From contig OZ024751.1 in the NCBI GenBank assembly GCA_964016885.1, positions 5,890,001-5,954,000 of the forward strand: DNA of 64,000 nt. Reading direction: 5' to 3'. The DNA comes from Eledone cirrhosa (lineage: Eukaryota). This document shows positions 4,448 through 58,513 of this stretch, in pieces. The number at the start of each line of letters is the position of its first letter. Within the stretch, counting starts at the first letter, position 1. Below the pieces are notes generated by a model. It did no database searches and was not told the DNA's origin. It saw nothing but the letters and a program-made list of their open reading frames with translations. The position numbers and the translations under genes were made by a program.

Positions 4448-4503
4448 TATAAATATATAATTATACACACACACATATATATATACATATAGGAGAAAGT
4501 ATG

Positions 4504-4600
4504 ACCCCGACGGTAGAGCTCAAACCGTTTCGGCGGCCATTTCTGGACTAAAGTAAGAGCTTTTAGTCTGGTAAATAAATAACCGAACTTTTCAAGGGGT
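4504..4600 (-). ncRNA. Type-I hammerhead, U3-A8 variant, intact core (family B)
   Basis: ACCCC-TTGAAAA-G[long stem II]C-GAAA-CGGT ttgagctct ACCG-TC-GGGGT: 5-bp stem I, 5-bp stem III, GUC site. Confidence 0.8.
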
Positions 4601-5120: not shown

Positions 5121-5822
5121 ACCGCCGCTCACGCCACGTAACGTGGTTCAATCCTCCCCACAATGCCGAGGTGGCAACACTTATCGGGCAAATCTTCTTT
5201 AGGCTCCTCGACAAACACTTCCCACTACAACACCGCTACCACAACATAATCAACAAAAACACTGTCAAGCTATCCTACAGCACCACACCTAACTTCGCAC
5301 AGAACAACGTCTTCTCAAACACCAAAAAACTCAACCTCTATGGAAGAACAACCTAGAAATTAGTGGAGAGCCGACCAGGAGGTGTAACTGCCCTGATAGA
5401 TCTACATGCCCCTCAACAACAGATGCCGAGAACGTAACATGATCTACCAGTGCAACGTGAGGACGGACACCTCCAACAAAGCTTATATAGGATTAAGCGC
5501 TTGTGACTTTAAGACCCGGCTCTACCAACACTGACATACGTTCCGAAACCCGGTCCGGCGACATGCCACCACACTTTCGGGCCACATCTGGGACTTCCAA
5601 GATAATAATATAACTTACCATCTTACTTGGAGCTTACTGTCCAGAGCTAACTCCTACAGGGGAGGACGCCATCCGTGTAACGTATGCTCGGAGGAAACAT
5701 TACAAATGCTGTTTACGAAGGATCAACTCCTAAACCAAAAAGACGAACTAGTAACTGCATGCAAACTCAGATTGCAGAAGACTTACCTCGCTCTCAAACC
5801 CCCTAACGATCCGGGTGGGTAG
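5121..5822 (+). pseudogene. Naiad-type linker and GIY-YIG endonuclease remnant
   Basis: VTWFNPP..IGQIFFRLLDKHFP..TVKLSYS, CNC..CP..C, IYQC..AYIG..FKTRLYQH, LSGHIW, CNVCSEE, LNQKDELVTACK..PPNDPGG*. Contains frameshifts and stops. Confidence 0.85.
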
Positions 5823-6611
5823 ACAAGGGCTGAAAAACCCCATTTGCCGAATAAGATAGGGAAAACCCCAACTTATATAGGTAGATGTACCTCTTTTCTT
5901 TTCCTGTATGTTTTCTTCATCCCTTTGTCTCCTCCTATCACTTCTTTCCACCACCGATCTTCTTCCTCGTTCGTTTCTTTGTTTTTTTTCCCTTTCGCCT
6001 ACCCCGAGGCAGCCCATCGGGCCTCTTTAACCTCAGTACCCCCACCCCGCTAACTTATAGATAGTATTGGCCGATTATGCTATACTAACTATTCATAGCA
6101 GCTGTGTTAGACCCCAGACATGTTGTATTAATTTATAATACCCAATTCTAAAATCTCAATAATTTTCATCTAGCAACACATTCTATAGCATTACCCGAAA
6201 AAGCAGAACCAACTAAATATAGCAGCTGTGTTAGACTCCTTAGTTTTTGTTTTATGTCACTTCTCACTTTCCAATCTTACATTCTGATACATCTTTCTCT
6301 CATTTTTATTATATTCTTTTTTATTATATTTGTTCATTGTCTCCTAATCTCATTCGATTTACCTTTCTATAACGTCCCTCCTCCTTTTTTTCAAGAAACC
6401 TTTTTTCGCCAACGTCCTCTGGCCTACTTTCATACATATTCCTTAGAATTTGCCGTGTAGATTTCACCTTCAACGCTTGACCGGCTCTACCCAATCCCCT
6501 ATCGTTCTACAGTGACCCCACCCCGCACCTACTGCCATGATAGATTTTCTGTGTCTGTTACAAATTTAGACCAATCCCCTTGACAACTACAACCTTTCCA
6601 TATAAGGATGT

Positions 6612-6708
6612 ACCCCTTGAAAAGTTCGGTTATTTATTTACCAGACTAAAATCACTTACTTTAGTCCAGAAATAGCCGTCAAAACGGGTTGAGCTCTGCC
6701 GTCGGGGT
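6612..6708 (+). ncRNA. Family B hammerhead, G12A mutated
   Basis: Same fold as 4504-4600 but AAAA replaces GAAA. Confidence 0.65.
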
Positions 6709-6814
6709 CATACTTTCTCCTATCACCCACTCTACTACTATAAGTATTGAGTACTCTGGTGCGTTAAGGTCCATCTGGTTCCTTACCACAACACCTTTGT
6801 TATATATATATATA

Positions 6815-6933
6815 TAACGAAGGAAATGTGGTAAGAAACCAGGTGGACCATAACGCACCAAAGTACTCAATACTTAGGGTAGTATTAGCCGTCGAAACGG
6901 CTTGAGCTCAGCCGTCGGGGTCTTACTTGTTCC

Positions 6934-6935
<2 letters not shown>
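6815..6935. mobile_element. Family B short inverted fragment
   Basis: Minus-strand pLTR tail joined to the plus-strand 3' half of the HHR, with TA flanks. Confidence 0.65.
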
Positions 6936-6992
<57 letters not shown>

Positions 6993-7565: not shown

Positions 7566-8976
7566 ATAATTTTATTAATACAATGACAGACAGTATCACA
7601 AATTCCATCTATCATTAATGATTTTATGTCTATAATTCAATTTACTTTCTTTGCATCTCATATATCAGAGATAGCCCTATATTGTTACACTGACATTATC
7701 TTTTTTCAATATTAACTTTCTGTTTTGTCTCCGAAAAAGAAATATTTGGATAGCAAAATTCGGTTATCCTTTCAGCACGTCGGAACGTATCAAAGATACC
7801 GGAAGTACACTGAAATATAGTATAATGACATATTGTGGCTGATTTCTATCGTAAATAACTCAATAAAATATAAATATTTGGTAAAAAGGAACAATGGCAT
7901 TGATGAGAAGACATCGTAGTTTTAGGAAATTCAAATGAAAGATCGTTATTCAATATTCCCCATTTCTATTTCTGAGTCATCAAATTGATAGTCTTCGTTG
8001 AAATAAATGCTACAGATTATTCAGAAAGCCTGCTTAGAAAACGAATAGATAACGAATGCCATACATCCAAATATAAAGCAGTTTCTTTGTTCACATTAAA
8101 CATTTTGAATTTTATAAATGCTTCCCTTCAAATTTAATATATAAATTTTAAACTATATGACGATTGAGAGGAGATATTGAAAACTGTACTAAATATCTAA
8201 TCACGTTGTGTAGTTCATTCTGATATCGATTATTCAATTGCTCTGATATTTCTGGGTAGTAACATCATTTCATTGAATGCAATATTTTCATTCTCTTCTT
8301 TGGTGACAGTGGCATATGGCGCTAGAATTTGGTAGGGTCCTAATTTAATAAAGAAAAAGCGTCATATATATTTTATGGACACGAATAGAGAAAAACGGAT
8401 GAAGTGATAATAAAGCTTCATAGCGAAATGGATAAAGAAGTTTATATTGTCTAAATATTTGATAGGGATACTTATTTGCTATGTTGATAATATCCTATAT
8501 ATGTCGGTCATATTACATATTCTTTGGCTAGAATGGACAATACATAACCACCATGCCACCGAATGATATGAAGAGTATATCAAGAATCAACAACGGACGA
8601 ATATAAATGGACGGATAACTCCGTTCAGATAGCATTTATTCAGCTTCAGCGTCGAAATATAGATAGATTACTGCAAAGGTAGAGAAGTGTCTACATGTAG
8701 ATGTATTACATCTATTTAAATAGAAATGTTAACTGTATATTTTGCTATATATTTTGTCCTACAGGTAAATGTTGGGTTATTAAGCATTCATATTTCCCAG
8801 TAAAAGGCCACACGTGAAATTTCTCCGGAAAGTAATATTCTCTTGTTTGAACTACGAAATGAAATACATAAAACTATCTCCTTTATCATTTCAAATCCTT
8901 TATATCATATCTCAGCATAATAAAATATTCAAAACTATAACAATAATAGTAATGATAATCTTCTTCTTCTTCTTCT

Positions 8977-10452
8977 GACATGCGCCATTTCCGACAGATC
9001 CATCCACGACAACCTCCACCTCATGCGATACATCGTAGAGAATGTAGCTAGGGAACCTGGCACGGGTGGGTCCTTGATCAATTTAGATCAGTCGAAAGCT
9101 CTCGATAGGGTCGACCATCGTTACCTAGCGGCAGTCCTGAGGGCGGCTGGCTTTGGGCCCATCTTCAGAGGCTGGATCGCTGCCATGCACAGCGACATCT
9201 GCTCTGTGGTGAGAGTGAACGGTCACCTTTCGGAACCCTTCAACATCATGCGCTCGGTCCCCCAAGGATGTCCCCTCTCGTCCCTCTTGTACGTATTGAC
9301 TCTCGAGCCATTACTGCACAAACTGGAGACGTTGAGGGGGGTCCGCGCGAACTAAGATGCGGAAGATCCGTGTCAGCATATGCGGACGATGTCACCGTTG
9401 TGGTGTCGTACGCCAAACACATCGAGGCGATCGGCACTACACTAAGAAAATACGAAGCGGTGACAGGAGCAATGATCAACCAGGAAAAGTCAGTGGGCCT
9501 GCAGCTCGGCACCTGGAGAGGCAGGTCCATGCCGTCCAACAGCGTCGTCGGGCGCTGGACAGATGGACCAGTTAAATTGCTCGGGGTCTATAGAGGATTA
9601 GTGGAGGGGAAGAGCGACGACGTACTTGGGGAAACTCTAGGCGTCGACGAAAATCAACTAGCCAATCTCTTCGGAAGAACTTTCGGGCCGGGGCCTATGG
9701 ACAACTTCCAGAAATCCCTGGCCTGGCAGTGCTACCGAGGAGCTTTGCCAGTTCGGGATAAAGTCTACAGGCATGGAGGTGCCGTCAGCCGGGCATGTCC
9801 GAGATGTGCGCAGGGCGACGAAACCGTCCTGCACGCACTCGTCCAGTGTCCGAGCATTGCTGACTTGTGGGTTTATGTCGAACACCTGCTGTCGCGTGTA
9901 GGACGGATCCAGCTATCAGCTGAGTCCATCTTCCTTTACCCGGGAAGGGAAGGCAATTTTTATCTGTCTGGTGGCCATGGCGAAAGAGATAGTATGGTGG
10001 ACATGTTTGAAAAGGTTGAAGACGACCACTTACATCTTCGGTGATGCCCTGATTAACTTTTTCAAATTTCATTTGAAAAGGAAAATCAGGGTAGAAAAGG
10101 AAGTGCTCTCTTCCCAGCATTTTGTTGAAAGATGGGTGAGAGAAGCAAGAATGGCCCGAGTGAATGGGCCTAATCTGAGTATGTGTCTGTAAATTAAAGG
10201 TGGAAAACTGGGAGAGGGCACTTGCCCTGGTGGTCAGGGTCACTGTGGATTTTTAATGGGCTTTCTCTACCAATGTCCCTCGGAAGTCTCCCCCCTATTG
10301 GGGAATTTTTTCATTGTTCTATTATTACATCCTCTGTTTCTTTTTTTAACACGCAGAAATGCCCATTTCGTACCGCCCTGTATTCTCCTGTACTGTCCTT
10401 AATGTAAACCCTTGTGGTTAATAAAGAAATCATTATTATTATTATTATTATT
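8977..10452 (+). mobile_element. 5'-truncated, internally deleted Tx1-like LINE copy
   Basis: Highly similar to 14426-16460 but lacks ~15040-15573 and ~20 bp near 15915. Ends AATAAAGAAATC(ATT)n. Confidence 0.95.
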
Positions 10453-10670
10453 GAATGCTATGGTTGACGGAGGCTCGGCTCTGTAAGGTATTGTAAATTT
10501 TGAACACTATAACAATTGTAAATTGTTTAAAACTTTAACGAACTTGTAGACAAAAACACCCTCCTCCTCGTGAGAGGGGTCTTTCTGCCCGTTATTTGGC
10601 CCTTCGGGGTTGAATAACTGCTTATTGGGGTTTTGTACCCAATATTTATTTTAAACAAAAAAAAAACAAC

Positions 10671-12741
10671 ATGGCTACGAAAAAGAAATTTCATAGGTCA
10701 CTCCCACTCATTCCGTCTTCTTCTTCCTCAATCATCACTACAGCAGAGAGAAGATTGTCTCTCTCCCTCCCTTCTCTTTCGCAAGCGACGAAAGAAAAGA
10801 AAAGTCTCGTGCAAAGCGTGCAAGATTTCTCCACGACGACGACGACAGCGACGAAACAGGTGTGCGGGAAATACGAAAACCCAGTTCATTCGTCTGACGT
10901 CAGGAATAATAGCAGTAGCAGCCGTAATAACAACAGCAACAGTGACAATGAAAACAACAGTAGCAGCCGCAACAGCATCACCAGCAGCATAAACAACAAC
11001 AGCATTAGCAGCAGCAACACCAACAACAACCACAGCAACAGCGGCGGAGGCAGTAGTCGTAGTACCTGCAGCAACAACAAAAGTACCAGCAGCTCTGACG
11101 ACAACAACAACAGCAGAGAAAAACCAATCTCATTTGCAGGTATTGCGAAAAATTTGGAAACAATCCTCATAACAAATGAGGAATTAGAGGAAGCGAAGAA
11201 GATGGTGACAAAGAACGGACACCGAGCAATCTGCAAGGCAGCGAAAAATTTTTTCGAAACCCAAGAGCACTGTACGGTCACGTACCGTACAGTAAGTACA
11301 AAATCCCGTAGGGTGGAAAGAGCCACAGAGGCCCAAATACAAAAAGCCTTTGGGGTCTGTGTGGCAGAGGAAAACGCACATCACCCGAGGCAAAAAATAC
11401 GCCACCGTAGACGTACTTTTTGCCACACCCCAGGAGGCAAAGGCCCAATCAGTAGTGACCCTAAGGAGCGAGGAAATGGTGTTGGTGCACTCCTACTGCG
11501 GGCAAAAAATTGTGAGGGTCAAACTGACCCACGTCCCCCCCGGAATGACCCCTTCTTGGCTGGCCGCGTCTGTCCTCGTCGGAATCGAGGACAAAACAAC
11601 TGTACTGCAAGTACAGAAAAAAGTAAGAGAAGATTGGGTCGGCTCCTCCATTGAGATGCTAATCCAAACCAACCAGGAGTGCATCGAAGCTATCCCGGAT
11701 GTGATAGACTTCGATAACGGCACTCAACTGCCCATAAGTGTTGAGGGCAAACGCCCGAAATGCTTTCGCTGTGGATCGAAGACTCACCTCAGGGCCTTCT
11801 GCAACGAGAAGACCCTGAGAAAGGAGAAAACCCCCCTCCTTCCGAATCCGGCTCCACGGCTACCAGCAACAGGACAAGCGGCAACCAGGAACGATAGGTC
11901 CGTGGCACCCATACCCACTCCACGGAAATCAAAGACAGCAGCAGCAGTGGAAATATTAACAACAACAACAGCAATACCAAATGCAGCTGCAACAGAGACT
12001 CCAGTGCAAACATCACCAACAACAACAAGTGAAAGAGTGGAGCTGGTACCCCTCCCCGTGCTTACAGAATCAGACATGGAGTGTGAGGTGGGAGAGGGAT
12101 GGCAAACGGTCGCAAGAAGGCACAAACGCAGAAGCAGCGCATCGTCGCCTTTGAAAAGGGAGGAAAGAAATAAGAAAAGGGTAAAGTCTACTGCAAAGAG
12201 ACCCACAGCAGCAACACCACCAACACCATCACCACCCACACCAGCACCACCATCACCACCGGCGACAACCCCACCGCCAACAACACCTTCAACACCACCA
12301 CCACAAGCACCAACATCGCAAAAACAACAACAAAACACACACACCCAGCAACAACGACAAGAAAATAGCAGAACCACACCCCACCCCCAGAAAAACAAAT
12401 GCACGGCAATAAACACACACAACAAGAAACTAATGACTTACATAATTGAACACACAGACATTTCACAACAGGACTACATAATACCAGCACCAATCAAAAC
12501 GCCAACTAACATAAGACTGCTAAAAATAGCACAGAAACAATACACAAACACTAAAACGAAATTCCCCAACGCAGTTGGTGATTTCAGGGACCTAGGAGGA
12601 ACCATCAATCGAAGAGTATATTCAGACATTCTCTTAGAAGAGCCGACGACCAGCCGAAGGGACGATTCAACGGTCCCTTCACCAGACGATCAAGTGAAAA
12701 GGGATGTAAAAACCATCCCTCCTCTACCAAAAGTACGGTAA
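10671..12741 (+). pseudogene. Tx1 ORF1 (nucleic-acid chaperone with zinc knuckle), one frameshift near 11352
   Basis: N/S-rich N-terminus (10671 frame) joins the 11350 frame at TTTGGGGTCT. CX2CX4HX4C knuckle CFRCGSKTHLRAFC and P/T-rich tail. Confidence 0.85.
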
Positions 12742-12776
12742 GTGGTCTTTCCCATCTTTTCCACTCTATTTTAAAC

Positions 12777-15700
12777 ATGACCTCACTCAGAATAGGCAGC
12801 ATAAATGCGCGTGGCTTGGGGTCGTCATGGAAGCAGGGTCACCTGCTCAACGACCTCAGGTCACTAAACATAGATGTAGTGGCCATCAGCGAGACCAGAA
12901 TCTCCGAAGCACGGGCCTTCGCACCGATCTTCGGCGGCTACGATGTGTACGCATCTCCCAGCCGTCCTGGATCGGGTGGAGGAGTTGCTGTGCTTTTTCG
13001 GAGAGGTTTGGATCTCGCCATACGGGCCATCTTCCTGGACCCAGAGGGTAAGCTGGTGGTGCTGGACGTGACCAGCGGAGACGGGCAAGCTTTCAGGCTA
13101 GTGGCCGTCTATGCCCCGACAGGAGCAGGGCGGCCTGATTTCTTCCGGCGTCTGGAGACCTTTCTTGGAACGTCCCGCTCTTTAGTGTTAGTGGGCGACT
13201 GGAACGGGATCTTAGATGCACGCTGGGACTGTGTGGGATTAGCGGATAGGGGTGGAGGGTGCAAGAGCCTCACCAACCTGCTCAGGCGTTTTGAACTGTC
13301 TGACAGGTAGCGATTGGATTTCCCGAATGTGCCAATGTGGACTTGGACAAACCGCATAGGGTCATCCAGATCATATCTAGATAGAGTATTTTGTAGGGAA
13401 ATAGATAGGTCTAGCATAGGCTGTCCACAATTCAAGATAGTCAGCTACACGGACCACAAATTCGTGACCTGTGTGCTTGACTTAGATAGGCTTCATAGAC
13501 GAGGACCCGGCTACTGGAAGCTAAACGCGTCCTTACCAGCGCGCAAGGCCTACAGAGACCGGATTAGCGAACTAGTTAAGCGGGCGTTGACGGGGGCCAT
13601 CGTCAACAACAAGTGGTGGTTTGCTCTGAAAAGAGCGATTAGAATAGAATCGATTAGGTTTAGTAAGGCTTTAGCAATAGAGAAAAATAGAGCAGAGGGA
13701 GAACTAGTTAGAAAATTAGACGAGGCGCTTAGCAAAGGCATTGCGACCGACGTGCTTGCGGCGAAATTGGCCCTTGACCAATTCTTCAATGCAAAGCACG
13801 AAGGCTGCGTTGTCAGAGCAAGGGTGCGTGCTCTCAGACACGAGGGGACGAAAGCCGTTCAATGGGCCCGAGTGGCGGAGGCGCGTCGTGGCAACAAAGC
13901 CACGATCCGGTCTTTGGTGGACCACGACGGGCGCATGCTACTCGATCCCGGGCAAATGTGTGAAGCTTTTCAGCGACACTTCGCTCAGCTGTTCGGGGGC
14001 AGCGGTGGGCCGGGTAGAGGAATGGACTTTAGTGTCTACCTCGACGGACTGCCGCGGCTCTCGGCCACTGAGGCGAAGTGTTGCGAAAAGCCGATAACTG
14101 CCGCTGAAGTAAGGGAGGCAATGACTGGCTGCACAAGGGGTAAATCGCCTGGTTTGGATGGTCTGCCCTATGAACTTTACGTACAGATGCCAGACTTGTT
14201 CGGAGGCCTCTTGGCGGACGTCTACTGCAACTGGCAACAGAACGGGAGAATTCCAAGTTCTGTGAGCCGAGGAGCGGTGGCACTGCTGAGAAAGGATCCG
14301 AACAAGGGGGATAACATAGAAAATTTCCGGCCCATAACTCTGCTAAACACAGAGTTTAAGATTTTGGCCAAGGTGCTAGCAAAGAGGTTGGCGCTTGTCG
14401 TTGGTGGTCTGGTGGGAGAGGCGCAGACATGCGCCATTCCCGACAGATCCATCCACGACAACCTCCACCTCATGCGATACATCGTAGAGAGGGTAGCTAG
14501 GGAACCTGGCACGGGTGGGTCCTTGATCAATTTAGATCAGTCGAAAGCTTTCGATGGGGTCGACCATCGTTACCTAGCGGCAGTCCTGAGGGCGGCTGGC
14601 TTTGGGCCCGTCTTCAGAGGCTGGATCGCTGCCATGCACAGCGACATCTGCTCTGTGGTGAGAGTGAACGGTCACCTGTCGGAACCGTTCAACATCATGC
14701 GCTCGGTCCGCCAAGGATGTCCCCTCTCGTCCCTCTTGTACGTATTGACTCTCGAGCCATTACTGCACAAACTGGAGACGTTGAGGGGGGTCCCGCGCGA
14801 ACTAGGATGCGGAAGATCCGTATCAGCATATGCGGACGATGTCACCGTAGTGGTGTCGAACGCCAAACACATCGAGGCGATCGGCACTACACTAAGAGAA
14901 TACGAAGCGGTGACAGGAGCAATGATCAACCAGGAAAAGTCAGTGGGCCTGCAGCTCGGCACCTGGAGAGGCAGGTCCATGCCGTCCAACAGCGTCGTCG
15001 GACGCTGGACGGACGGACCGGTTAAATTGCTAGGGGTCTGGTTCGGTCCGGACCTCCAGACGGACAAAAACTGGGACGAGGTGACGAGCAGGGTGGCTTC
15101 TCTCACCCAGAAATGGGCCGAGAGGAAGCTATCCCTGAAAGGTCGAGCGGAGGTGGCTAACGCGTACATCGCGTCCGTCATCTGCTACCGCCTGACCGTC
15201 GTACCTTGTCCTAAGCCTCGCCTGACTGTGCTGGAGCGTTTGCTCTTTCGCTTTTTGTGGAAGGGACGCGCTCCGATGGTCAGGCGGTCCATCTGTTGTC
15301 AACACCCGCTACGTGGAGGGCTGGGCATGCCGTGGCTGATGATGCGCAGGCACGCGCTCAGGCTACGACATGTCCACCTCTTCCTCGACGGTGATCAGGT
15401 GTGGTCGCCGTTTGCTAGACGCGTGTTTCCCCAGCTCGTTTCCTTGACGGAGCTGCAGTCCTGGGTCAAGCGAAGACCGAGAGGGAGCGCCTGGAGACTG
15501 GAATGTCTTCAGGCGCTCACAGCCCTCGACCAATCGGGCAATGTGATCGGTGGAAACTCCACCTCGGCGTTCTATAGAGGATTAGTGGAGGGGAAGAGCG
15601 ACGACGTACTTGGGGAAACTCTAGGCGTCGACGAAAATCAACTAGCCAATCTCTTCGGAAGAACTTTCGGGCCAGGGCCTATGGACAACTTCCAGAAATC

Positions 15701-16196
15701 TCTGGCCTGGCAGTGCTACCGAGGAGCCTTGCCAGTTCGGGACAAACTCTACAGGCATGGAGGTGCCGTCAGCCGGGCATGTCCGAGATGCGCGCAGGGC
15801 GACGAAACCGTCCTGCACGCACTCGTCCAGTGTCCGAAAATTGCTGACTTGTGGGTTTATGTCGAACACCTGCTGTCGCGTTTAGGACGGATCCAGCTAT
15901 CATCTGAGTCCATCGTGAGGATTGCCCCGCCCTCCTCCTTTAGCCGGGAAGGGCAGGCAGTTTTTATCTGTCTGGTGGCCATGGCGAAAGAGATAGTATG
16001 GTGGACACGTTTGAAAGGGCTGAAGACGAGCACTTACCTCTTCGGTGATGCTCTGATTGACTTTTTCAAATTTCATTTGAAAAGGAAAATCAGAGTAGAG
16101 AGGGAAATGCTCTCTTCTCAGCATTTTGTTGAAAGATGGGTGAGAGAAGCAAGAATGGCCCGAGTGAATGGGCCGACTCTGAGTATATATCTGTAA
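12777..16196 (+). pseudogene. Tx1 ORF2 (APE endonuclease, RT, zinc finger), single in-frame TAG at 13308-13310
   Basis: NARGL, SET, GDWN, YLDRV, TDH; KSPGLDG, FRPITLLN, QGCPLS, YADD; CPRC..ETVLHALVQC. Confidence 0.93.
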
Positions 16197-20781: not shown

Positions 20782-20970
20782 AATAAACTTTTCAAGGATT
20801 TACACAAATCCAGCCTCCTGTCATTTCATTATAATATTATATATATATATATATATATTTAATACAGTTTTACAATAGATTAGAAGCACTCCAAAGTTAT
20901 GGTTTTCCGGAGTTATTAATATTAATTTAAAATATTAACAAATATAGACATTCTTGTGATCGAGTATATG

Positions 20971-21029
20971 TTATTATACATATTTCAGAGGTACTGAGCT
21001 ATTTACAACAGTACGTCCTCATCAGATAA
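20971..21029 (-). ncRNA. Type-I hammerhead within pLTR-like fragment 20860-21119
   Basis: TTAT-CTGATGA-GGAcGTACTG...CAGTACcTCT-GAAA-T ATGT A-TA-ATAA. Adjacent 30-bp inverted repeat at 21047-21118. Confidence 0.75.
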
Positions 21030-21119
21030 AATAAGATGATGCTTGACATACCTTGACTATGTTGATGGTTAAAATTTGAAATATCCTGAATTTTAACCAT
21101 CAACATAGTCAAGGTATGG

Positions 21120-21436
21120 CGCGAAATTTATTATAATTATTGACCAACCAATCAAATTACTTCTCGAAAAACTTGGCATTTCGAGCCACTTTTTCCATAT
21201 AAAACAAGTAACATTCAGAGACCAACCAGATGTGAGAAAAACCACAGACCCTCCATCTCAACTCTACTTTTGAAAAGCAGAAGAACTGCGAAACCGGTAA
21301 AGGAACCAAATAAATATATATTTAAAAAAAAAAAATAAGACTCCAGTTGCATTTTTCGATTTCATCTTTTTTACTTTATACTTTCACTCGTGTAGGACAC
21401 CTCGGTTATTTTTCATTTTGTAAAAAAAAACCTCAC

Positions 21437-21443
<7 letters not shown>
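21120..21443 (+). mobile_element. Family A pLTR-like copy with intact U3-A8 HHR (21267-21302)
   Basis: CTT-TTGAAAA-GCAG aagaa CTGC-GAAA-CCGG-TA-AAG. Ends in (TA)n. Confidence 0.8.
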
Positions 21444-27923: not shown

Positions 27924-27980
<57 letters not shown>

Positions 27981-27982
<2 letters not shown>

Positions 27983-29147
27983 TATATTATATTTTGAGAT
28001 TAAACTCTCAGTCGTTTACAATAAATCAGCTCCAAGAAACGGGCATTTCCAAGCAGTTAAATACATTAATATATATGATAAACACAAAACGTGTTTGCAT
28101 TGTAACAGACAAAGTTAGCTATCAATGAAATAAACTAATTAAAGTGAATACAATTTGTCTGTCACGATATAAGTCAATAAAGACAAGCTTATATTGGCAA
28201 AGGCCGTGATTCCTGGACAAATCCAAATTTCAAAATCCAAACCCGCTTCGTAGATGAATTTGAACTTCGAAACTTAAATATGTTTCGCAACGATGGTACA
28301 TGAATCGAAAAATAAAGAGAATCGAAATGGAATTGAAATAAAAAGTGAAATACCCAAATCTTCTGTGCTTATCAACAGGAATCCAGTAAAATTAGTATAT
28401 TTCACCATCAAACATTTTGCAGGTCTGACTACACGTGTGTGTAGCCAGGCCAAACTAGCCGTCCCGCATTCCCGGTGCTAGAAATAACAGCCGTTTATGC
28501 GGGATTAAAGATCAGCTCTACAGTTAAGGAGCAATATACTATATTATATTATTACAATGGAAACACGTTTTGTGTTTATCATATATATTAATGTATTTAA
28601 CTGCTCGGAAATGCCTCTTTCTTGGAGCTGATTTATTGTAAATGACTGAGAGTTTAATCTCAAAATATAATATAGTATATTGCTCCTTAACTGTAGAGCT
28701 GATCTTTAATCCCGCATAAACGGCTGTTATTTCTAGCACCGGGAATGCGGGACGGCTAGTTTGTCCTGGCTACACACACGTGTAGTCAGACCTGCAAAAT
28801 TTTTGATGGTGAAATATACTAATTTTACTGGATTCCTGTTGATAAGCACAGAAGATTTGGGTATTTCACTTTTTATTTCAATTCCATTCCGATTCTCTTT
28901 ATTTTTCAATTCATGTACCATCGTTGCGAAACATATTTAAGTTTCGAAGTTCAAATTCATCTACGGAGCGGGTTTGGATTTTGAAATTTGGATTTGTCCA
29001 GGAATCACGGCCTTTGCCAATATAAGCTTGTCTTTATTGACTTATATCGTGACAGACAAATTGTATTCACTTTAATTAGTTTATTTCATTGATAGCTAAC
29101 TTTGTCTGTTACAATGCAAACACGTTTTGTGTTTATCAAATATATTA

Positions 29148-29153
<6 letters not shown>
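27981..29153. mobile_element. Two opposed, differently permuted copies of a 557-bp non-coding unit
   Basis: Left copy repeats its start at 27981 / 28538. Right copy (reverse) repeats its start at 28552 / 29109. Both periods are 557 bp. (TA)n flanks. Confidence 0.85.
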
Positions 29154-29231
<78 letters not shown>

Positions 29232-29248
29232 TTATATATTTATATATA

Positions 29249-30290
29249 TAACGAAGGAGTTGTGGTAAGGAACCAGATGGACCATAACGCACCAGAGTAC
29301 TCAATACTTAGGCTAGTAGAGTGGGTAATAGGAAAATGTATGACCCAGACGGCAGAGCTCAAGCCGTTTTGACGGCTATTTCTGGACTAAATTAGAATTT
29401 TTAGCCTGGTAAATAAATAGCCGAACTTTTCAAGGGTACTTCCTTATATGGGAAGATTGTAGTTGTCAACATTTCTTGTAAACTCAATTAGATCTATCAT
29501 GGCAGTGGGTGGCAGGTGTTGGTGACCTGTAGAGCAATGAGGGAGTGGGCGGAGCCGGTCAAGCGTTGAAAGTGAAATCTATACCCAAAATTCTAAGGAT
29601 TGTGTATGCAAGTAGGCCAGAGGAAGTAGGCGACAAAGGGTTCTGGAGAAAATAGAGGAGGGACCTTATAGAATTGCTAAATCAAATGAGATTTGGAGAC
29701 AATAAAAAAAAATAAGAGAAAGATATATAAAAATATAAAATTGGATAGTAAGAAGTGATAAAAATAAAACCTGTTGAGTCTAAAACAGCTGCTATATTTA
29801 GTTGGTGTTGCTTTTTCTGCCAATGCTATAGAATAGGTTAATAAGTTGAGAATAGAAGATTCTAAATAAGAATTTTTAAAATAATAGAATTGGGTAGCAA
29901 AAAGTAATACAAAATCTCTGGGGTCTAACACAGCTGCCATCATTCGTTAGTATTGCGTTTTCAGCCAGTGCTATCTATAATTCACTGGGGTGAGGGTACT
30001 GAGGGTACAGAGGCCCAATGGACTGCCTCGGGGTGGGCGAAAGGGGAAAAAGAAAAGGAAAAAGATCGGGAGTGGAAGGAAGTGATAGGAGGAGATAAAG
30101 AGAAGAAGAAAACAGACAGGAAAAGAAGAGGTACATCTACCTATATAAGCTGGGGTTTCTCCTACTTTATTCGGCAAGTGGGATGTTTTAGCCATTGTCT
30201 ACCCACCCGGGTCGTTAGGGGGTTTGAGGGTGAGGTAGGTCATACGCAAAGGGTGTTTGCATGCAGTTACCAGTTTGACTTTTTTGTTCC
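29249..30290 (-). mobile_element. Family B Naiad 3' end/pLTR with HHR 29343-29437 (G12A)
   Basis: Reverse homology to 5730-6802, including LVTACK..KPPNDPGG*. Confidence 0.85.
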
Positions 30291-30479
30291 CAGAGTATAC
30301 ACATAGTTATTCGCTTCAATACAACACACGTGAACGAGTGCCTATAGTAGTTCCCGGACTCGAGTTTCGGCCACACCAAATGCAGCAGTAGGGTGCACTG
30401 CACCCTCTGCTTGGATATATTATGCAACAATGCATAATCGGCGCATGTGGCTTCATATATATATATTTATATATATAAA

Positions 30480-31938: not shown

Positions 31939-34900
31939 TCTATATATATAAAACAGAAGATGTCTGTCTGTTTGTGTAACCGCATGCATTTCTACATTTT
32001 ACAACCGATTTGCACCAAATTTCATACATAGGTTTCTGAAGTCCTATTACGCGTCGTCGGCTATTTTATTTTTCGGTACATCTACTCTGGGGACCCTCAG
32101 GGACAGGTAGCCGCCTTAAGCCTCTCCCTTCGACTTATCTATTGAAGTTCACATTAACACTGTATTAGTACCTGATAACTTTTTAAGTTTACGTTCGATC
32201 TTCGTTTTCACTTTCAAAACAACAATCATCTTCGGATGAAATTTCAGAAATGTAAACATCTGATTCATTTGAAGATAAATCACTAATATTATCTTTTGTT
32301 TCTTGTTCATTTTGAATGTCGTCGTGTGTAAAAACTTGAAAGTCGGTATCGCTACTTTCATAAGCAATGTTGATACAAACAAAAAATCTATTCTACTTTC
32401 AACGTTAAAAAAACACGTGTTGTTTTAAGTTGTTTCACTATATTAAGTGTTAATTGTCGCGGTAAGGGCCTAATCTCTCAGTAACCTCGAATTGACGAGA
32501 TTTTGATGACGGTATTGTTTATTTTTAGAACGATATTTAAGTGTGGGTGTTACGGCGGTTTTGGGCGGTTTGAACAAATAAAGGGGAAATAATTCCGGCC
32601 GGTTTGAACAAATAAAGGGGAAATAATTCCGGCCGGTTTGAACACTAAAGGGTTAAAGGAGGTTTAGTTAATGTGTTTATGGTTCCAGTTTATCATGCTG
32701 TGATTTTTCGGCCATTTTTGCCTGTATCCTTTCAATGGTTAGTACTTACTTTGCGTTGCCCCTAACTTAAAACCTGAAATTTGACTGGTACACAATATCT
32801 TGCAAAATATATCCACTTTCTCAGACCACATAGATTTATCATATTTTTTCACAATTTATATCCGTGTTTTATTGCTTACTTAAACGTTTATTGTTCACTA
32901 TTTATCGTTCTCCCTGGTTAATTTTCTAGAAACAATGCGCCCCAAGAAAAGAACTCTCATTGTTCGATTATCTAATGATGCAAGTAGGTCAAAGCGAAGG
33001 CGTAAATGCAACTGCGATCAGGCTCTCACTGAATGCTGTGCAGACGGCAGCTGCAAGAGCGGAGGAGGATGACAGTCGGCGTGAACTTCGACGGAACAAA
33101 AGTGCTGCCGCGACTGCTGCTGCTCGCGCACGAGAGGATGAAGGATGACGTGCCGTTCGACGTAGCAGGGATGCCGCTGCAACATTTGCTGCTCGCGCAT
33201 GAGAGGATGAAGGACGACGCGCCATTCGACGAAGCAGGAACGCCACTGCCACTGCTTCTGCACGAAATACTGAAACCATAGAGCAACGACGTGGCCGTCT
33301 TCTGCAAAGTGAACAGCGGTGATCATCGTTACATGGCATTTCTAGGACTTGCAATTCACGATGGTTGTTGAAGGCCTTTAACTACGACCCCTCCTCGGAC
33401 TACGTCGTCCATGCAGATATTCAAATTGGGGAAATGACCTCTACTTGCTAGTTTTGTCGTACGAAAAAGTGGCCAGGGGAGAGAGATGGAATGTGTTGTT
33501 CAAACGATAAAGTTAGACTACCTCCTATTCGCGACTCTCCAGAGACATTGCAACTCCTTTTGACAGACACGACGAGGGAATCATCGAGGTTTCTGCGTAA
33601 TATCCGCCGCTACAATTCCGCGTTTCAGATGACATCTTTCGGAACGTGGGTTCATGCCAACTTTCAAGGTCCAGGGGCAGATTTACCACTTGATTGGATG
33701 TATGCAGCCTATAGAAAGGATCCTCAATTTCTTCAGTCATACTTCGTTGGAAACTATCAGGAGCAGGCAGAGATGCGAAATTCTATTTGGTCCGAAACTA
33801 ACATTGGAACCAGAATAAAACTTCAAGAAATGCTCACGAGAAAAACAGCTATGTTCGCAGTTTCAAGTACGCTTTGGAAACAGCTACCGACCAAAACTTT
33901 AGTGTGGTCATACATGCTGACCGAAGGCCATCTGGAGAACACGCTGGTCGGTTCAACGCACCAACATGTAATGAGATTGCTGCGGTTATTTGTGGTGAAC
34001 AGCACAACAAGAGAGATATCATTCTAAAGCACCGAGACAGCACATTACAGCGTATGAGACACACAGGTCCTACAATGCACTCCAGTATCCATTGCTATTT
34101 ATCAACGGCGAGGACGGATACCATTTCGGCATTCCTCAACATTCGGCAGGCAATGGTGAGGCACATCTTAGGAAAACTTTCACCTGCATGGATTTTGTAT
34201 GCTTTGCGATTTATGGTAAGGGACAATTCATTCAACCACCTACACCGTTCTCGTGACCTTTTCCAACAATTTGCTGTTCATATGGCCGTTAAAATGGAGT
34301 CCGAGAGATTATGGTTCATTAAATTAAATAAAAAGAAACTTCGATCTGAATGCTACATTCATCTATGCGATGGAATTAACAACGACTTATCCCCAGACAA
34401 TTTAGGGCAAGTGTGTATTTTGCCTTCAGCGTTCACAGGGGGACCCCGATACATGCACCTGAGGACTCAGGACGCCATAACCTACGTACGATATTATGGG
34501 CGCCCCGACATTTTCATAACGTTTACATGCAATCCCAAGTGGAGGGAGATTACAAATGAACTGTTCCACGGTCAAGCGCCAAGACACAGGCACGATCTCA
34601 TAGCAAGAGTGTTTCGCCTGAAATTATCCAGATTAATGGATTTATTAAAGAAAGGACAGGTTTTTGGGTCTGTCAGGTGCAACATGTACACGGTTGAATG
34701 GGAGAAACGAGGGCTGCCGCATGCCCATATCTTGATTTGGTTGGTTACAAAAATCAGTTCAAACTACATCAACAAATTCATTTCTGCCGAACTAACTGAT
34801 CTGTCGATTGACAAGGACCTCTTCTCTATAGTCACATCAAACTGAGTCCATGGTCCTCGTGGACATGGACTCAATATGAAGTCCCCGTGCATACACGACG

Positions 34901-37230
34901 GAAAGTGTACAAAACGATATCCCAGGCCGTTTTTACAGGAAACACAGACTGGCGGTGACGTATATCTGTTGTATAGGCGCAGGAGACCTGAAGACAGTGG
35001 GTTCACAGCAAAAAGTTGGTGAACGTGAAATCGGCAACAGCTGGATAGTGCCATATTGCCCCCTCCTTTTGAAAGCGTTCAACGCCAATATAAACGTCGA
35101 ATTTTGTAACTCAGTAAAACCAATTAAATACGTTTGTAAGTACGTAAACAAGAGATAGGATGCTGCCGTATTTGGTCTTCGTCATGAAAACAGTAGAGAC
35201 GAGGTATCTGACTACCAAGCAGGCCGATACATTAGCAGCAATGAAGCCTTTTGGCGCGTTTTCAGCTTCCCACTGCACCAACGACACCCCGTCTTTAAAC
35301 AACTTGCCGTTCACCTTGAAAACGGTCAACGGGTGTATTTCAATGATGCAACAGCTGCTCAGCTAGCGATCTCACCAAAGGAAACTACGCTCACCTCTTT
35401 TTTCAAACTTTGTCAACACGACGACTTCGTTCGAACTCTGCTGTATTCTGAGATACCGTCTTACTATACATGAAACAGGATAAAATGGCTACGAAGGAAG
35501 GTAGGGCAAGAGGTGTTTGGACATCCAGGCATCAAATTCGACAATTGCCTTGGGCGAGTTTATACGGTCCACCCTACCCAACACGAATGCTTCTACCTGC
35601 GACTTCTACTTCATGAGGTAAGAGGGCCGACTAGCTTCACTCATCTGAGAACCGTCGATCGATACGCCTGCGCAACGTACAGGGAAGCCTGCTTGAGGCG
35701 TGGACTTTTAGAAGATGACGCACAATGGGATGCAACCTTGACGGAAGCTGCCATCTTACATTTCTCCCGTAGTCTAAGAGCACTTTTTGCTATCCTCTTG
35801 CACGTCTGTGAATTGCGCGATCCTTACTCTTTATGGCAAAAGTTTAAAGATGATTTCGCAGACGAATATAGGCGTCTCGCTCAATTGCAATCTCAAAACT
35901 TAGATTTCAGACGCTATATATATAATAGAGCTCTGATCGATATTGAAGACAGACTGGCTTCAATGGGTGGAGATGTCTTGGAGAAATATGGGCTTCCGCA
36001 AAGACTTCGAGATGAGCCATCTGACATTCCCAACGTCATTATACGTGAAACGTCATATGATGTCGACGAGCTCAAAAGGTATGTTGAAGAGAATGAACCA
36101 AAACTTCTAATGGATCAAAAACAAGCCTACAACATTGTCGTTGATTCCATCTGTAATCGGGGAGGGCGTATATTCTTCCTGGACGCACCTGGAGACACGG
36201 GAAAAACATTTGTAATCACTCTTTTACTCGCTGCAGTGAGGCAACACGGAAACATCGCATTGGCCGTGGCTTCTTCCGGCATAGCAGCAAATTTGCTGCC
36301 TGGTGACAGGACGGCCCATTCTTCAGTATTTCTCTCAACGTGGCATCATCTCAGACACCCACATGCAAAATCAGCAAGTCTTCCGGAAAAGCGCTGGTGT
36401 TAAAGCGCTGCCTACTAATTGTTTGGGACGAATGCACAATGGCCCACAGGGCGGCTTTTGAGGCATTACACCGGTCACTCAAAGACATCAGAGACTGTTA
36501 AGAACGAATGGGAGGTGTCATGTTCCTGTTATCTGGGGACTTCCGACATACTCTGCCTGTAATCCCAAAAGGTACGCGGGCTGATGAGGTTGGTGCATGC
36601 CTTAAGGCCTCCCCCTTTGCCATTATGTAAGAAAGCTGACGCTTACAAAAAACATATGAGCACAACTGCAAGGTGATGAGACATCAGCGGGTTTTGCTGC
36701 TGCCATTCTGTTGTTGGGAGATGGCAAAGTCCCACTCGACGGAGATGGTACAGCCGACCTCACAGGGATTTGCAGATGCGTTAAGTCAATTGCTAAGTTA
36801 CGGACGTCTGTTTTTCCTAATCTTAAGGAGAACTACACAAATAAAGAGTGGTTGTGTGAACGCGTAATATTGGCTTCGAAAAACCACATAGTTGGAGGCA
36901 CCAATGAACAGCTCCTGCTGTGCTTGCCTAGAAACTTGCATGTCTTCAAGTCCCTTCACACTATGGCTGATCCGGAGGAAGTTGTTAATTACCCCACAGA
37001 ATTTCTTAACTCCCTAGACTCTCCCGGATTGCCACCACACTTACTGCGACTTAAGAAAGGTGCCCCTGTCATGCTCCTCAGAAATTTGGAACCCCGAAGG
37101 CTTTCCAACGGCACGCGTCTGGTCCTCCAAAAGGCGATGCCTCATGTTATTGAGGAAATAATACTTACAGGATGTGGTAAGGGGGATACTGTCTTCATAC
37201 CAAGGATACCTCTCATTCCATCCGGTAAAG
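31939..37230 (+). mobile_element. Decayed autonomous Helitron, 3'-truncated
   Basis: 5' TCTATATATATAAAACAGAAGATGTCTGTCTG terminus, 34-bp tandem repeat ~32567-32643, and RepHel coding remnants. Confidence 0.9.
32935..37225 (+). pseudogene. Helitron RepHel (HUH Rep plus PIF1-like helicase)
   Basis: GRPDIFITFTCNPKW, VEWEKRGLPHAHIL, IKYVCKYVNK; LDAPGDTGKTF, VWDECTM, SGDFR, PVMLLRNL..LSNGTRL, FIPRIPL. Many frameshifts and stops; last helicase motifs absent. Confidence 0.92.
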
Positions 37231-37232
37231 AC

Positions 37233-37511
37233 AAGTTCCTTATATTAAAAAATTCATCATTTTACGATCGTTTCTGCTATGTGTATGTGTGTTGGTATGT
37301 ATATCATATAGATCTATGTAAAAATATTACGAATTATCAGAGGAAATATACATACCTTCACATATATACGCGGCATCTATATGTGAAGGTATGTATATTT
37401 CCTCTGATAATTTGTACTATTTTTACATAGATATATATGATATACATACCAACACACATATACATCCCAGAAACGATCGTAAAATGATGAATTTTTTAAT
37501 ATAAGGAACTT
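37233..37511. repeat. ~135-bp-arm fold-back abutting the truncated Helitron
   Basis: Near-perfect inverted repeat centred ~37371 containing GAAACGATCGTA. Confidence 0.85.
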
Positions 37512-37683: not shown

Positions 37684-37744
<61 letters not shown>

Positions 37745-37747
<3 letters not shown>

Positions 37748-37936
37748 AACATTTTTAACCACGACGGCAGAGCTCAAGCCGTTTCGACGGCTATTTAGAC
37801 GGCGAGTCCAGAAATAGCCGTCGAAACGGCTTGAGTTCTGCTGTCGGGCTTAAACATATTCATATTACGCACTCTACTACCCTAGTTCTCTGGTGCGTTA
37901 TGGTCCATCTGGTTCCTTACCACACTTCCTTCGTTA
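37745..37936. mobile_element. Family B short fold-back fragment
   Basis: Same structure as 3530-3727, with (TA)n flanks. Confidence 0.7.
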
Positions 37937-41149: not shown

Positions 41150-43245
41150 TTAGGCTATAAAGTGGGGCTGTATTACAAGAAAGTTTTGTGAAACTTATGT
41201 TTACAAGCCGAAATTGCCTCAGATTTTTTTGTTTAAGATGTGGTCATTGGCGTAGAGAATTTCCAGGGCTTAAGCGGCGCAGAGGTCACAAGGTCTTTTA
41301 TTTCCGTTATACGATCTAGCCTTAGCTATGATTTCCCAGTGTAACCTATATTGGGTGTGGTTGTCTTTTAGACTCCAAATATAAGCTTAAAGTGACGTCA
41401 TATTCCTTCTTAAAGGGTTAAGAAAAGAATGGGCATGGATGTAAAGACGCTGCTTGAATCTATTGGCGGTTAACCTTATGTAGGCCCTATGGGACGTGGG
41501 TGTCTCAAAATTGCATTTGTAGACAATGTAACTAGAGAGGCATTTCCCGGATAGGGGGCAGTCAACCCGATTCCTACAATTACAGTTAGTACTAGCTACA
41601 GGGTTGCATGTATTCGTACGACTAGGAAATTTAGCTAGATTTGAAGCAGTGATGTTATGTGCAAGGTTAGGAGTCGTAGAGTAAGACATTTTAATGGTAT
41701 TTATATTCAAAATTATATTATATTTATGTGCTGGGGGGAAATTCTTCATAATAAGGGAGAGAAAGATCTTAGCTAATGGTGTGGCTACCTCCATATTATA
41801 TGGTGGGTTATACCATATAATGCGTCGGGATATATTTTTCCTAGGTCTATTCTCATACACGGTATATGCTACCTTATCGACAAATCCACTCTGAGCAAGA
41901 GCTTCATGTGGAATGGTCGGTGATAATATGCCCGTATGTAGATAGACGAGAAAGCCTCAAAGAAACGTTTCTTATCAGGTTCTTCGTTATGCTGGCAGGA
42001 TGGTTAGAATGCTTGCTTATGTAATTAAGCGTATCATTGGGCTTTCTATACGGGTAGTGCAAGCCATTCGAGAAATTGAGGGTAACGTGGATGTAATTAA
42101 CGACAGAGAGGTTGGCCTCAACCTGGATGGAGAGGCTGAAGCCTTTAAGGAAGGCTGTGAATTCTTTTCTGAACCTGTCGCAAGCGCCTGGGCCGCACTT
42201 AGTCATGGTCAAAAACCCGTCATCACGGTACAAACCACCGCCCACGTTGAGGAATTCTTTCTTGATAGAGAAAAGAAGGAAAACGCCGATAAGATCAGTA
42301 ACATCCGCAGAATCACTGGCGCCCATACTCACATCGAATGGGGTACTATTAGATTTTTTAATCCAAATAGAGTCGTCGAAATTAATCACCGACTTACGGG
42401 CATTGAGGATGACATCAACTTCGAAATCCTTAACCACCGTGAGTGTTTTAGCGAAATTGATAGTTCTAAGAAGAAGTGATAAAGTGACAGAGGAGTAGTA
42501 ATTATTGATGTCGAATTGGATAAAACGGCAATGTTCCTTTTTGCATATGCCGTTGAACCAATCAATCACCGCGAAAGAATTGTTCCACAGTGCAAGAGGG
42601 GCCAAGCTTCAAATTTAAGGTATAATTCTTTCTAAAATCTTTTTTACTAAGCCTACCTAAATCGGACTTCGTTGGGTTAATAAGCCGAATAGAGGGCTTG
42701 TTCGGGAAATTGGATTTCTGATCCTTCAGGGTAAAGTGGAGAGAAATAGGGCCCAGAAGAGGTTCAGTCCTGTCCATGATGTTGAGATCAAAGGAGATTT
42801 TAAACCCAGCATCATTGATGTCATTAATGACACTCCGATTAGTTTTACGGTAATCCTTAGTTACAGCATTATGCAGCAGTTGATGGTAAGTACTCCGCTC
42901 CACTTGATATAGATTGCCAGTTTTGTCGGATTGGACGTGGACGCCATTAGAATCCTTAATAGAAAGAATTCTATTCTTCAGGGCCTGATGGAAGGAATTG
43001 CTCCTATTCCGAAATTTGAAACTCCGTATGAGTTCCAAGACATCAATTTCGAAGGGTAGCAATGCTGCCTTACTCGGAGGGTTATTTTAGGTTTTAAACC
43101 CCAATTTATCTTGTTTGTTGTCCGCTTTTCCCTGATTATCGAAATAAAAGGCACGCCAACGCAACCTTTTAATGAACGAGTCTGTTTTCTGTAACAGGAA
43201 TTTTAGGTATTTCTTCCTGCTTGGTACGGGTATGTTATTTGTAGA
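41150..43245 (-). pseudogene. Near full-length decayed Naiad-type PLE ORF (RT plus GIY-YIG)
   Basis: NIPVP..FIKRLRWRAF, SDKTGNLY, TLKDQK..RLINPTKS, QFDINNYYSS, FDVSMGASD, GLYRDDG, WYNPPY, CNC..CP..C, IVYKC..YI, CDLC, LNKK..SACKH. 43270-43370 is an inverted copy of 40841-40940. Confidence 0.9.
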
Positions 43246-51103: not shown

Positions 51104-51111
<8 letters not shown>

Positions 51112-52295
51112 GTGAGTTTTTTTTACAAAATAAAAAATAACCGGTGTCCTACACGAGTGAAAGTATAAAGTAAAAAAGATGAAATCGAAAATGCAACGTG
51201 AGTCTTATTGTTAAAAATATATATATATTTATTTGGTTCCTTTACCGATTTCGCAGTTCTTCTGCTTTTCAAAAGTAGAGTTGAGATGGGGGGTTTGTGG
51301 TTTTTCTCACATCTGGTTGGTCTCTGAATGTTACTTGTCTCATATGGAAAAAAGTGGCTCGAAATGCCAGGTTTTTAGAGAAGTAATTTGATTGGTTGGT
51401 CAATAATTATAATAAATTTCGCGCCAGTTCGCGTTACAAAGTTTTTCAAACAAAGGGGGGAGGGGAGGGGGACACAGGTTGTCTTTTCATATATGAGTTT
51501 TTGAATTTTTTTTAATTGAATTACTTTTCACCAAGGCTTTTTTAATAATAAACGTAATTTGATTGGTTATAAATGAAATTATGGCTGTCACGTGAACAAG
51601 TTTTCATTCAATTTTCGCGCCCTTATTTGGAAATCTATTCTGTAGCATTTTTAGAGAATTTTATGACAAGCAAAAGATAATGGTCAAGAGAAATTGGATG
51701 GGAGAATTGTTCTGGTTCAGTGAATATGGTTAGTTCGCTGGGGTGTATGTATATTTATTTGTGTGCTTGTATGTGTGTGTGTGTGTGTGTATGTGTGTGT
51801 GTGTGTGTTTGAATTTATTTTTACTTAAAAAAAGGGGCTCACGAAGGCTTTTTTTAAATAAACGTAATTTGATGGGTTATAAATGAAATTATGGCTGTCA
51901 CGTGAATAAGTTTTCATTAAATTTTCGCGCCCTTATTTGGAAATCTATTAATAGATTTCCAAATAAGGGCGAGAAATTTATTATAATTATTGACCAACCA
52001 ATCAAATTACTTCGCTAAAATCCTGGCGTTTCGAGCCACTTTTTTCCATATAAAACAAGTAACATTCAGAGACCAACCAGATGTGAGAAAAACCACAGAC
52101 CCTCCATCTCAACTCTACTTTTGAAAAGCAAAAGAACCGCGAAACCGGTAAAGGAACCAAATAAATATATATTTAAAAAAAAAAAATAAGACTCCAGTTG
52201 CATTTTCGATTTCATCTTTTTTTCTTTATACTTTCACTCGTGTAGGACACCTCGGGTATTTTTCATTTTGTAATAAAAAAAACTCACTGTCTAAT
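51104..52295. mobile_element. Largest family A fold-back element (HHRs 51240-51275 -, 52118-52153 +)
   Basis: Arms 51104-51425 / 51969-52295, internal ~110-bp direct repeat, palindrome 51929-51970, (TA)n flanks. Confidence 0.85.
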
Positions 52296-55070: not shown

Positions 55071-58409
<3,339 letters not shown>

Positions 58410-58513
58410 TATATAATAACTTGTGTGTTACACCTCTATTCTTTTAACTATATATATATATATATATATATAAGTATATACTGTATATATATATATATTT
58501 ATATAAGTATATA

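Follow-up and report, generated by a model that had tools for sequence, protein, structure and literature searches.

How did a 557-bp non-coding sequence come to lie as two inverted, slightly overlong copies in a (TA)n tract, and did the template behind them depend on a ribozyme? The locus was examined within the window, the whole 64-kb stretch analyzed here, which is animal DNA rich in TA and CA repeats and carries a LINE, a Helitron-like ORF cluster, and several remnants of Penelope-like elements (PLEs). The reading we prefer, with a probability of roughly 55%, is a non-autonomous passenger of a Penelope-like retrotransposon that was copied from a head-to-tail RNA template and had no need of its own ribozyme.

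Layout of the inverted pair

The element occupies positions 27981–29153. The left arm (27982–28550) is 569 bp, which is one 557-bp unit plus 12 bp; the excess is 13 bp if the A at 27981 is counted, and this A is ambiguous against the TA tract. The right arm (28552–29153) is inverted and 602 bp long, one unit plus 45 bp, and it crosses the unit junction. The excesses are terminal redundancies, 12–13 bp at 28539–28550 on the minus strand of the left arm and 45 bp in the right arm, where 28552–28596 on the plus strand is repeated at 29109–29153. The original prediction described two near-identical inverted copies exceeding the unit by about 13 and 45 bp, and alignment of the arms bears this out with 11 differing positions. 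It also placed the starts of the copies at different points of the unit and both copies within (TA)n. The starts are 79 bp apart within the unit (27982 versus 28061), and TA arrays flank the element at 27928–27992 and 29140–29250, with the left target tract at 27928–27981 and the right one at 29154–29250. A single extra base, 28551, separates the arms at their head-to-head junction; it fits neither arm and was presumably non-templated.

The inferred RNA sense is the minus strand in the left arm, whose RNA 3′ end would lie at the TA tract, and the plus strand in the right arm, whose 3′ end would lie at the inner of two end points. The offset leaves a one-sided tail of 79 bp (27982–28060, minus strand) running from an outer family end point (27982/3) to this inner one (28061), and the two points may be fixed reverse-transcription start sites bounding the tail. 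Because the right arm does not contain the left, a simple fold-back cannot account for the pair, and the template must have extended over at least about 680 nt with a 557-nt periodicity.

The 64-kb window yielded neither another copy nor an array of the unit, and no full dimers or multimers were seen. The unit holds no coding remnant, and its longest stop-free frame is 72 amino acids. A profile of one PLE lineage scored −2.6 on the element, a value reached by 150 of 200 shuffles, compared to 279 for the control. Weak tblastn similarity to PLE proteins (best E 0.002) was rejected because 2 of 40 shuffles equaled it and the profile score was null. ARAGORN reported no tRNA genes in the element, and neither a Pol III A box nor a B box was matched. 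A splice-acceptor-like site at 28415–28424 and Sm-site-like words were judged chance occurrences in AT-rich DNA. The right TA tract adjoins a copy (29251–30460) of a separate TA-flanked family with short inverted end pieces, which is also present at 5733–6936, 4492–4890, 37744–37934, and 3535–3721.

The family in public reads

Four of eight public runs, none of the eight recorded as RNA, were aligned to the left arm: X1 with 439 contigs, X4 with one contig, X6 with 1650 reads, and X7 with 1247 reads. X4 and X5 had small shares. The aligned reads and contigs are mostly 90–99% like the left arm. The best run shared only 39% of sampled words and may therefore stem from a related population or a related species. 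Of the X6 letters, the unit accounts for about 6 × 10−5, which would be roughly 100–350 units in a 1–3 Gb genome were the X6 library unbiased, which it is not. An exact 24-mer of the unit had no match in metagenome or viral contigs, and the element had no phage match. These data identify a real non-coding, structured, multi-copy repeat. The read statistics below cover 40 of the 136 substitutions, 12 of the 19 indels, and 12 of the 212 loose ends.

A 557-bp back-joint, the signature of head-to-tail units, is present in 29 X6 reads (6 starts) and 23 X7 reads (5 starts). The junction is crossed with different letters by 44 more X6 and 28 more X7 reads, giving at least two junction types; other members of the family therefore cross the head-to-tail joint. 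TA-type loose ends occur at 27983 in 67 X6 reads, with no X7 entry among those listed, and at 28061 in 97 X6 and 91 X7 reads, where the consensus is mixed. Both positions coincide exactly with the points where the arms meet the TA tracts, and read depth about doubles across 28061. At three positions the arms share letters from which the reads depart, by 741 of 742 at 28164, 486 of 522 at 28224, and 209 of 227 at 28274. The presence of these read-rare letters in both arms indicates one template lineage and, most simply, one event.

Most other read ends probably have a different origin. Those at 28140, 28152, 28229, 28260, 28331, and 28393 fall exactly on AATT sites, and the one at 28303 falls on an AATT site created by a common variant. 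Given their position on AATT, and with 93% of the reads running on in unlike sequence, we take them as library cuts rather than element ends. The end at 28509 is probably also a library cut, though the window letters do not explain it.

Folding and polarity

The hairpin at 28423–28450 and the long stem at 28462–28504 that had been proposed for a GC-rich island are both present, with right-arm counterparts at 28764–28791 and 28710–28752. The hairpin is GC-rich and varies in length within the family. The second structure consists of an 8–9-bp stem, a 3 × 3 internal loop, and an inner hairpin, and it varies among family members. On both strands, none of 200 shuffles folds as well as the 126-nt island (z −4.3 and −4.1). 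The alternative CTAGC/GCTAG pairing, also part of the prediction, carries little weight as evidence: CTAG is self-complementary, so every two CTAG sites can pair, and counting such pairings added nothing.

Predicted structure extends beyond the island. The whole right arm has folding z-scores of −4.4 and −6.4, and those of five control arms range from −2.4 to 0.7. The longest predicted helix is a 24-bp hairpin with 8 G-U pairs on the minus strand at 28221–28279 (right-arm counterpart 28935–28993), which is predicted only on the inferred sense strand, and the island is one of several predicted hairpins and helices. The unit is predicted to fold as a compact circle with 59% of its bases paired on the inferred sense strand.

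Variation in the reads was compared with these structures. Five of the 40 listed substitutions (of 136) stand at 42–61% of reads in or beside the long stem. They include one at the internal-loop position 28472, where 179 of 312 reads differ. The segment 28405–28451 holds 6 of the 12 listed indels. The sole compensatory pair change, G-C to A-U at 28466/28500, involves two CpG sites, and a second pair in the island stays paired as U-G on the minus strand. The island stems appear to be kept, without an invariant core that could be claimed. The hairpins are predicted to act in RNA stability or protein binding rather than in catalysis.

The same variants bear on polarity. Pairing is kept at 14 of 23 paired sites on the minus strand versus 4 of 14 on the plus strand (40 of 136 substitutions listed). 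In a post hoc subset of confident non-CpG Watson–Crick transitions, pairing is kept at 5 of 5 sites (p 0.03); dropping 28103, where almost every read has a different partner base, leaves 4 of 4 (p 0.06). Three sites at CpG, three with G-U pairs, and a single transversion that breaks its pair were kept out of this subset. On the minus strand, A>G sites occur per base at about twice the rate of the reverse change (p 0.03 in X6, 0.018 in X7, and 0.12 in X1, runs that are not mutually independent). This excess could fit G-U tolerance or RNA editing (A-to-I) of an RNA intermediate. Across 27981–28551, each of the four aligned runs has more T>C than A>G variant sites when read on the plus strand. 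By analogy with published PLE insertions, the left arm would have its RNA sense on the minus strand, and these two weak tests agree.

Ribozyme searches

The original prediction reported no hammerhead core on either strand, and core and descriptor scans lead to the same result. No CUGANGA...GAAA core occurs on either strand of 27981–29153. Two descriptor scans that allowed C3-G8, U3-A8, and G3-C8 cores gave no zero-deviation hammerhead hits in the element, and one-deviation hits from the relaxed scan did not rise above the background of shuffled sequences (8 and 11 of 60). Among the control regions, one scan retrieved 4 of 7 and the other 4 of 10, six distinct regions between them. The outer end carries a hammerhead look-alike (27983–28011, minus strand), scored on its right-arm counterpart near 28646–28678, that was rejected as a ribozyme: it is without N7, has A for G12, and lacks a helix I of at least 4 bp. 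None of the listed read variants restores N7, G12, or helix I. The absence of a hammerhead from the element is fairly firm. Minimal and U3-A8 hammerheads are documented (PMC4209133), and further ribozyme literature is available (PMC11620745, PMC11662667). The island differs from TS-like ribozymes as described there in having a 3 × 3 rather than a 5 × 6 loop.

Loose motifs for the twister, pistol, hatchet, and hairpin ribozymes were not found in the element. HDV-like ribozymes combine nested P1, P1.1, P2, and P3 pseudoknots with a catalytic C in J4/2. An HDV-like candidate in the island was rejected since its P3/L3-like seed at 28466 is accompanied by no G for P1.1 and no J4/2 motif, and the complete HDV-like topology had 0 matches on 4 strands. 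Rfam returned no ribozyme match up to E 10 and only hairpin-type matches far below gathering scores; it missed the window's own hammerheads too, so this blank is weak evidence. The absence of any known ribozyme is likely, and it is less well controlled than that of the hammerhead.

The hammerheads of the window belong to other sequences. The descriptor finds type I cores with helices at 21025(−), 54401(−), 58812(−), 54880(+), and 25065(−). None of these five reaches the Rfam gathering score, and E-value searches missed 21025, 54401, and 54880. A family of about 325 bp with a type I hammerhead is present at 822–1094, 1802–2163, 21118–21442, 51105–51426, and 51968–52293. Its hammerhead shows U3-A8 covariation, and the core at 21270 has a 4-bp helix II, a palindromic helix III, and a 3-bp helix I. 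Three of the copies share an approximate 5′ start, so the family looks linear rather than permuted.

A probable Penelope-like insertion route

The published PLE signature comprises a partial tandem, an inverted 5′ copy, and a one-sided tail (PMC8557442, PMC3846280). Naiad PLEs have no canonical hammerheads according to the published account, yet they make partial tandems, inverted copies, and tails in (TA)n, and Octopus Naiads prefer (TA)n (PMC8557442). An anole PLE nicks and extends both target strands in vitro, starting at two internal RNA sites that bound a tail, and its hammerhead mutants are unimpaired in insertion in vitro (PMC11167929).

Fourteen loci in the window, the element included, were compared for layout; the eight among them that are partial, chimeric, or of other layouts were left uncounted. 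Five other inserts lie head-to-head in (TA)n, and their longer arms exceed the shorter by 63, 63, 85, 83, and 40 bp. The element shares this layout, an inverted head-to-head copy with a one-sided tail of 79 bp compared to 40–85 bp in the five, and it has two fixed 3′ end points in a microsatellite, at 27983 and 28061. A type I hammerhead points outward in two of the five (54214 and 58625), which marks the outer ends as RNA 3′ ends. One of the five, 55110–58450, has a GIY-YIG ORF inside. The prediction that the element used the same insertion route as the hammerhead families of the window thus agrees with the layout of five further inserts, and a PLE-type route is well supported.

The same prediction inferred a retrozyme-like RNA processed by a different, possibly new, ribozyme or signal, and the step to a different or new ribozyme is not supported. 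Hammerhead-less Naiads make the same structures (PMC8557442) and anole hammerhead mutants insert (PMC11167929), so there is no need to invoke a new ribozyme, and the element probably requires none of its own.

A sequence link to an autonomous PLE was found neither in the window nor, for two 12-mers, in the Craig et al. supplement text. Similarity of the tail to the hammerhead family at 20858 was rejected (by-eye z 4.3, with a window-wide E of about 1–2), and a multiple alignment of the tail with this family was uninformative. The locus itself, 20858–21442, is a chimeric head-to-head insert with one arm from the canonical hammerhead family and one from the U3-A8 family, which suggests either two different RNAs in one event or a nested insertion.

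Coding PLE remnants are found elsewhere in the window. The insert at 55110–58450 is a head-to-head PLE remnant with a C-terminal GIY-YIG ORF (56325–57128) and a 40-bp tail. Its terminal repeat (about 58250–58290) carries, in both arms, a U3-A8 hammerhead-like motif with C for A13 that was read by eye and left unscored by the descriptor scan. The PLE ORF remnants at 61663–63782 and 41387–43086(−) are apparently of different lineages (DKG and DKT motifs). Pfam GIY-YIG and RVT_1 domains were found in 2 of 6 ORFs scanned. Relatives of the reverse transcriptase at 62595 often carry both reverse transcriptase and GIY-YIG domains; among the few that are named, a protein of Octopus bimaculoides aligns over 35% of the query at 63% identity, which makes an octopus-like host plausible. 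A LINE with a 961-aa stop-free ORF2 frame lies at 10614–16196, with a broken partial copy upstream at 8924–10431.

Template of the two copies

In the mechanism that we favor, a tandem or partial-tandem copy would be transcribed from the minus strand (left-arm orientation) into a structured RNA that exceeds one unit in length. The reverse transcriptase/GIY-YIG endonuclease of a PLE would nick both strands of the (TA)n tract, and each nick would prime reverse transcription at one of two fixed AU-rich internal sites. Start sites 79 nt apart would leave the one-sided tail. Both cDNAs would run slightly over one unit and be joined 5′ end to 5′ end with one extra base.

Several observations count against parts of this scheme. 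The 79-bp tail is about twice the 30–40 bp published for PLEs. The start sites as published lie in an AC-rich stem-loop without target homology, and those of the element are AU-rich patches. Cephalopod Naiads are described as long inactivated (PMC8557442), which speaks against a Naiad helper for arms that differ at only 11 positions; recently active Penelope-like families are described in O. vulgaris (PMC13282606). Finally, a linear template with a fixed 5′ end would end at 28105, and X6 depth shows no step there (281, 269, and 258 over 28081–28140 in an enzyme-fragmented library).

The prediction of a circular or multimeric template holds in its head-to-tail part, since the unit junction is crossed in other members of the family; such a template may be multimeric, terminally redundant, or circular. 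If arms were truncated at random, both would end within 46 nt past the unit with a probability of 0.1–7% (mean arm lengths of 1200–150 nt). Both arms ending just past one unit hints at a unit-length circle, and a circular RNA template of whatever origin is a real though minority prospect.

The foremost alternative to the favored mechanism is a 557-nt circular RNA made without its own ribozyme and inserted by the same PLE route. The circle would arise from a host nuclease and an RtcB-type ligase, from cleavage in trans, or from a protein-assisted decayed hammerhead at the outer end, and each reverse transcriptase would go once round and stop shortly after its own start. The low truncation probability favors this account, but the locus was picked for its unit-plus-overrun arms, so that probability is post hoc. 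The flat depth at 28105 and the predicted compact circular fold fit it as well. RtcB circularizes animal retrozyme monomers in vitro (PMC7229834), and the outer end is where the hammerhead look-alike would cut; against a decayed hammerhead, the look-alike is without N7, G12, and helix I, and no variant among the 40 of 136 substitutions and 12 of 19 indels listed restores them. The same two arms would also result from a linear RNA about 680 nt long that carries a 124-nt terminal repeat. We regard the ribozyme-free circle as possible and rather unlikely.

An undescribed ribozyme is improbable, and equally so is the fuller account in which an animal circular-RNA retroelement is cut to monomer length by such a self-cleaving ribozyme, whether within the GC island or at another place in the unit, and copied once round by a Penelope-like reverse transcriptase. 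The arguments for a circle apply here too, the island surpasses every shuffle in folding on both strands, and the change at 28466/28500 replaces G-C by A-U on both sides while a second pair stays U-G on the minus strand. The scans were also imperfect, given the hammerheads that Rfam missed and the control recovery of 4 of 7 and 4 of 10. Set against this, the compensatory pair consists of two CpG sites, and no conserved single-stranded core is evident in view of the variation at 28472 and the indels at 28405–28451. The HDV-like topology is incomplete, and PLE insertion does not require a ribozyme (PMC8557442, PMC11167929).

A repeat propagated at the DNA level, as a satellite, an extrachromosomal circle, or a Helitron/Helentron array, and placed by repair or rolling-circle insertion with no RNA step, is less probable still. 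Head-to-tail units are typical of satellites; however, the (TA)n-ending X6 reads at the junction (67) are about as numerous as those crossing it head-to-tail (73), unlike a long array, and the window has no array of the unit. Helitrons and Helentrons end at a hairpin followed by CTRR and insert at A|T. On the plus strand, the GC-rich hairpin followed by CTAG (28423–28459) resembles a Helitron 3′ end, and the window contains a broken ORF cluster at 33452–37430 that we take, by its motifs, to be Helitron-like. A Helitron or Helentron was nonetheless rejected for the element: the CTAG at 28456–28459 is internal in both arms, neither arm ends there, no loose end falls there among the 12 of 212 listed, and the arms end in (TA)n. 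The tailed head-to-head layout matches the neighboring PLE inserts instead. The ORF cluster ends in a 279-bp self-inverted segment (37233–37511). An assembly or long-read fold-back artifact is scarcely credible: long inverted repeats in microsatellites are hard to assemble, no contig spans a whole arm, and no strand-change joint at the center is listed (one arm was aligned), but there are 11 differences between the arms, the right does not include the left as a substring, the sequences flanking the pair are unrelated, and independent reads contain the junction and both end points.

Implications and comparison with known systems

Animal retrozymes were found through hammerhead searches, so a hammerhead-less family with the same unit structure is invisible to such screens. 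If the element is a PLE passenger, Penelope passengers would be more varied than catalogued and the hammerhead would be optional cargo. The family bears on how PLEs make partial tandems, inverted arms, and tails and on whether a ribozyme matters; its two fixed end points and many short copies offer a clean test. Were the RNA circular, the family would represent a way of making mobile circular RNA in animals that either dispenses with a ribozyme or uses a new one. Searches of open-access papers listed no description of a hammerhead-less, PLE-mobilized head-to-tail family in an animal, and existing catalogues may already contain the family as an unknown repeat or SINE, for example in the octopus library of PMC13282606 (Zenodo).

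Three known systems resemble the element in part. The animal non-LTR retrozymes (Cervera and de la Peña 2020, PMC7229834; Li, Clavereau and Pollet 2026, bioRxiv 10.64898/2026.07.22.740005) share with it a non-coding head-to-tail unit, low GC content, a predicted self-paired RNA, dispersed near-monomer copies, and co-occurrence with PLEs. In the element, both arms exceed one unit, back-joints occur in X6 and X7, and high self-pairing is predicted from the right-arm z-scores. The 557-bp length is inside the 51–972-bp range given by Li et al. and exceeds the 170–400-nt circles given by Cervera and de la Peña. The unit has no type I hammerhead, the feature that defines the class, and the element is therefore not classed as an animal non-LTR retrozyme.

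The putative non-autonomous Chlamys elements, such as MRC1 of Chlamydomonas, have head-to-tail copies (PMC8557442). Like the element, MRC1 is non-autonomous and forms pseudo-LTR and head-to-tail copies, in a clade described as mostly without hammerheads. Chlamys elements are algal, have (CA)n or (C)n targets, and generally have 3′ ends like those of autonomous families (PMC8557442).

The endonuclease-bearing PLEs, including Naiads (Craig et al. 2021, PMC8557442; Arkhipova et al. 2013, PMC3846280; Frangieh et al. 2024, PMC11167929), share with the element the partial tandem, the head-to-head inverted copy, the one-sided tail, the (TA)n target, the lack of a discernible target-site duplication, and two fixed 3′ end points. 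The element differs from them in its 79-bp tail, compared to 30–40 bp in the published descriptions, and in having no reverse transcriptase or GIY-YIG coding remnant, and thus not the ORF of an autonomous PLE. In its mode of insertion the element resembles a PLE passenger, in its appearance an animal non-LTR retrozyme.
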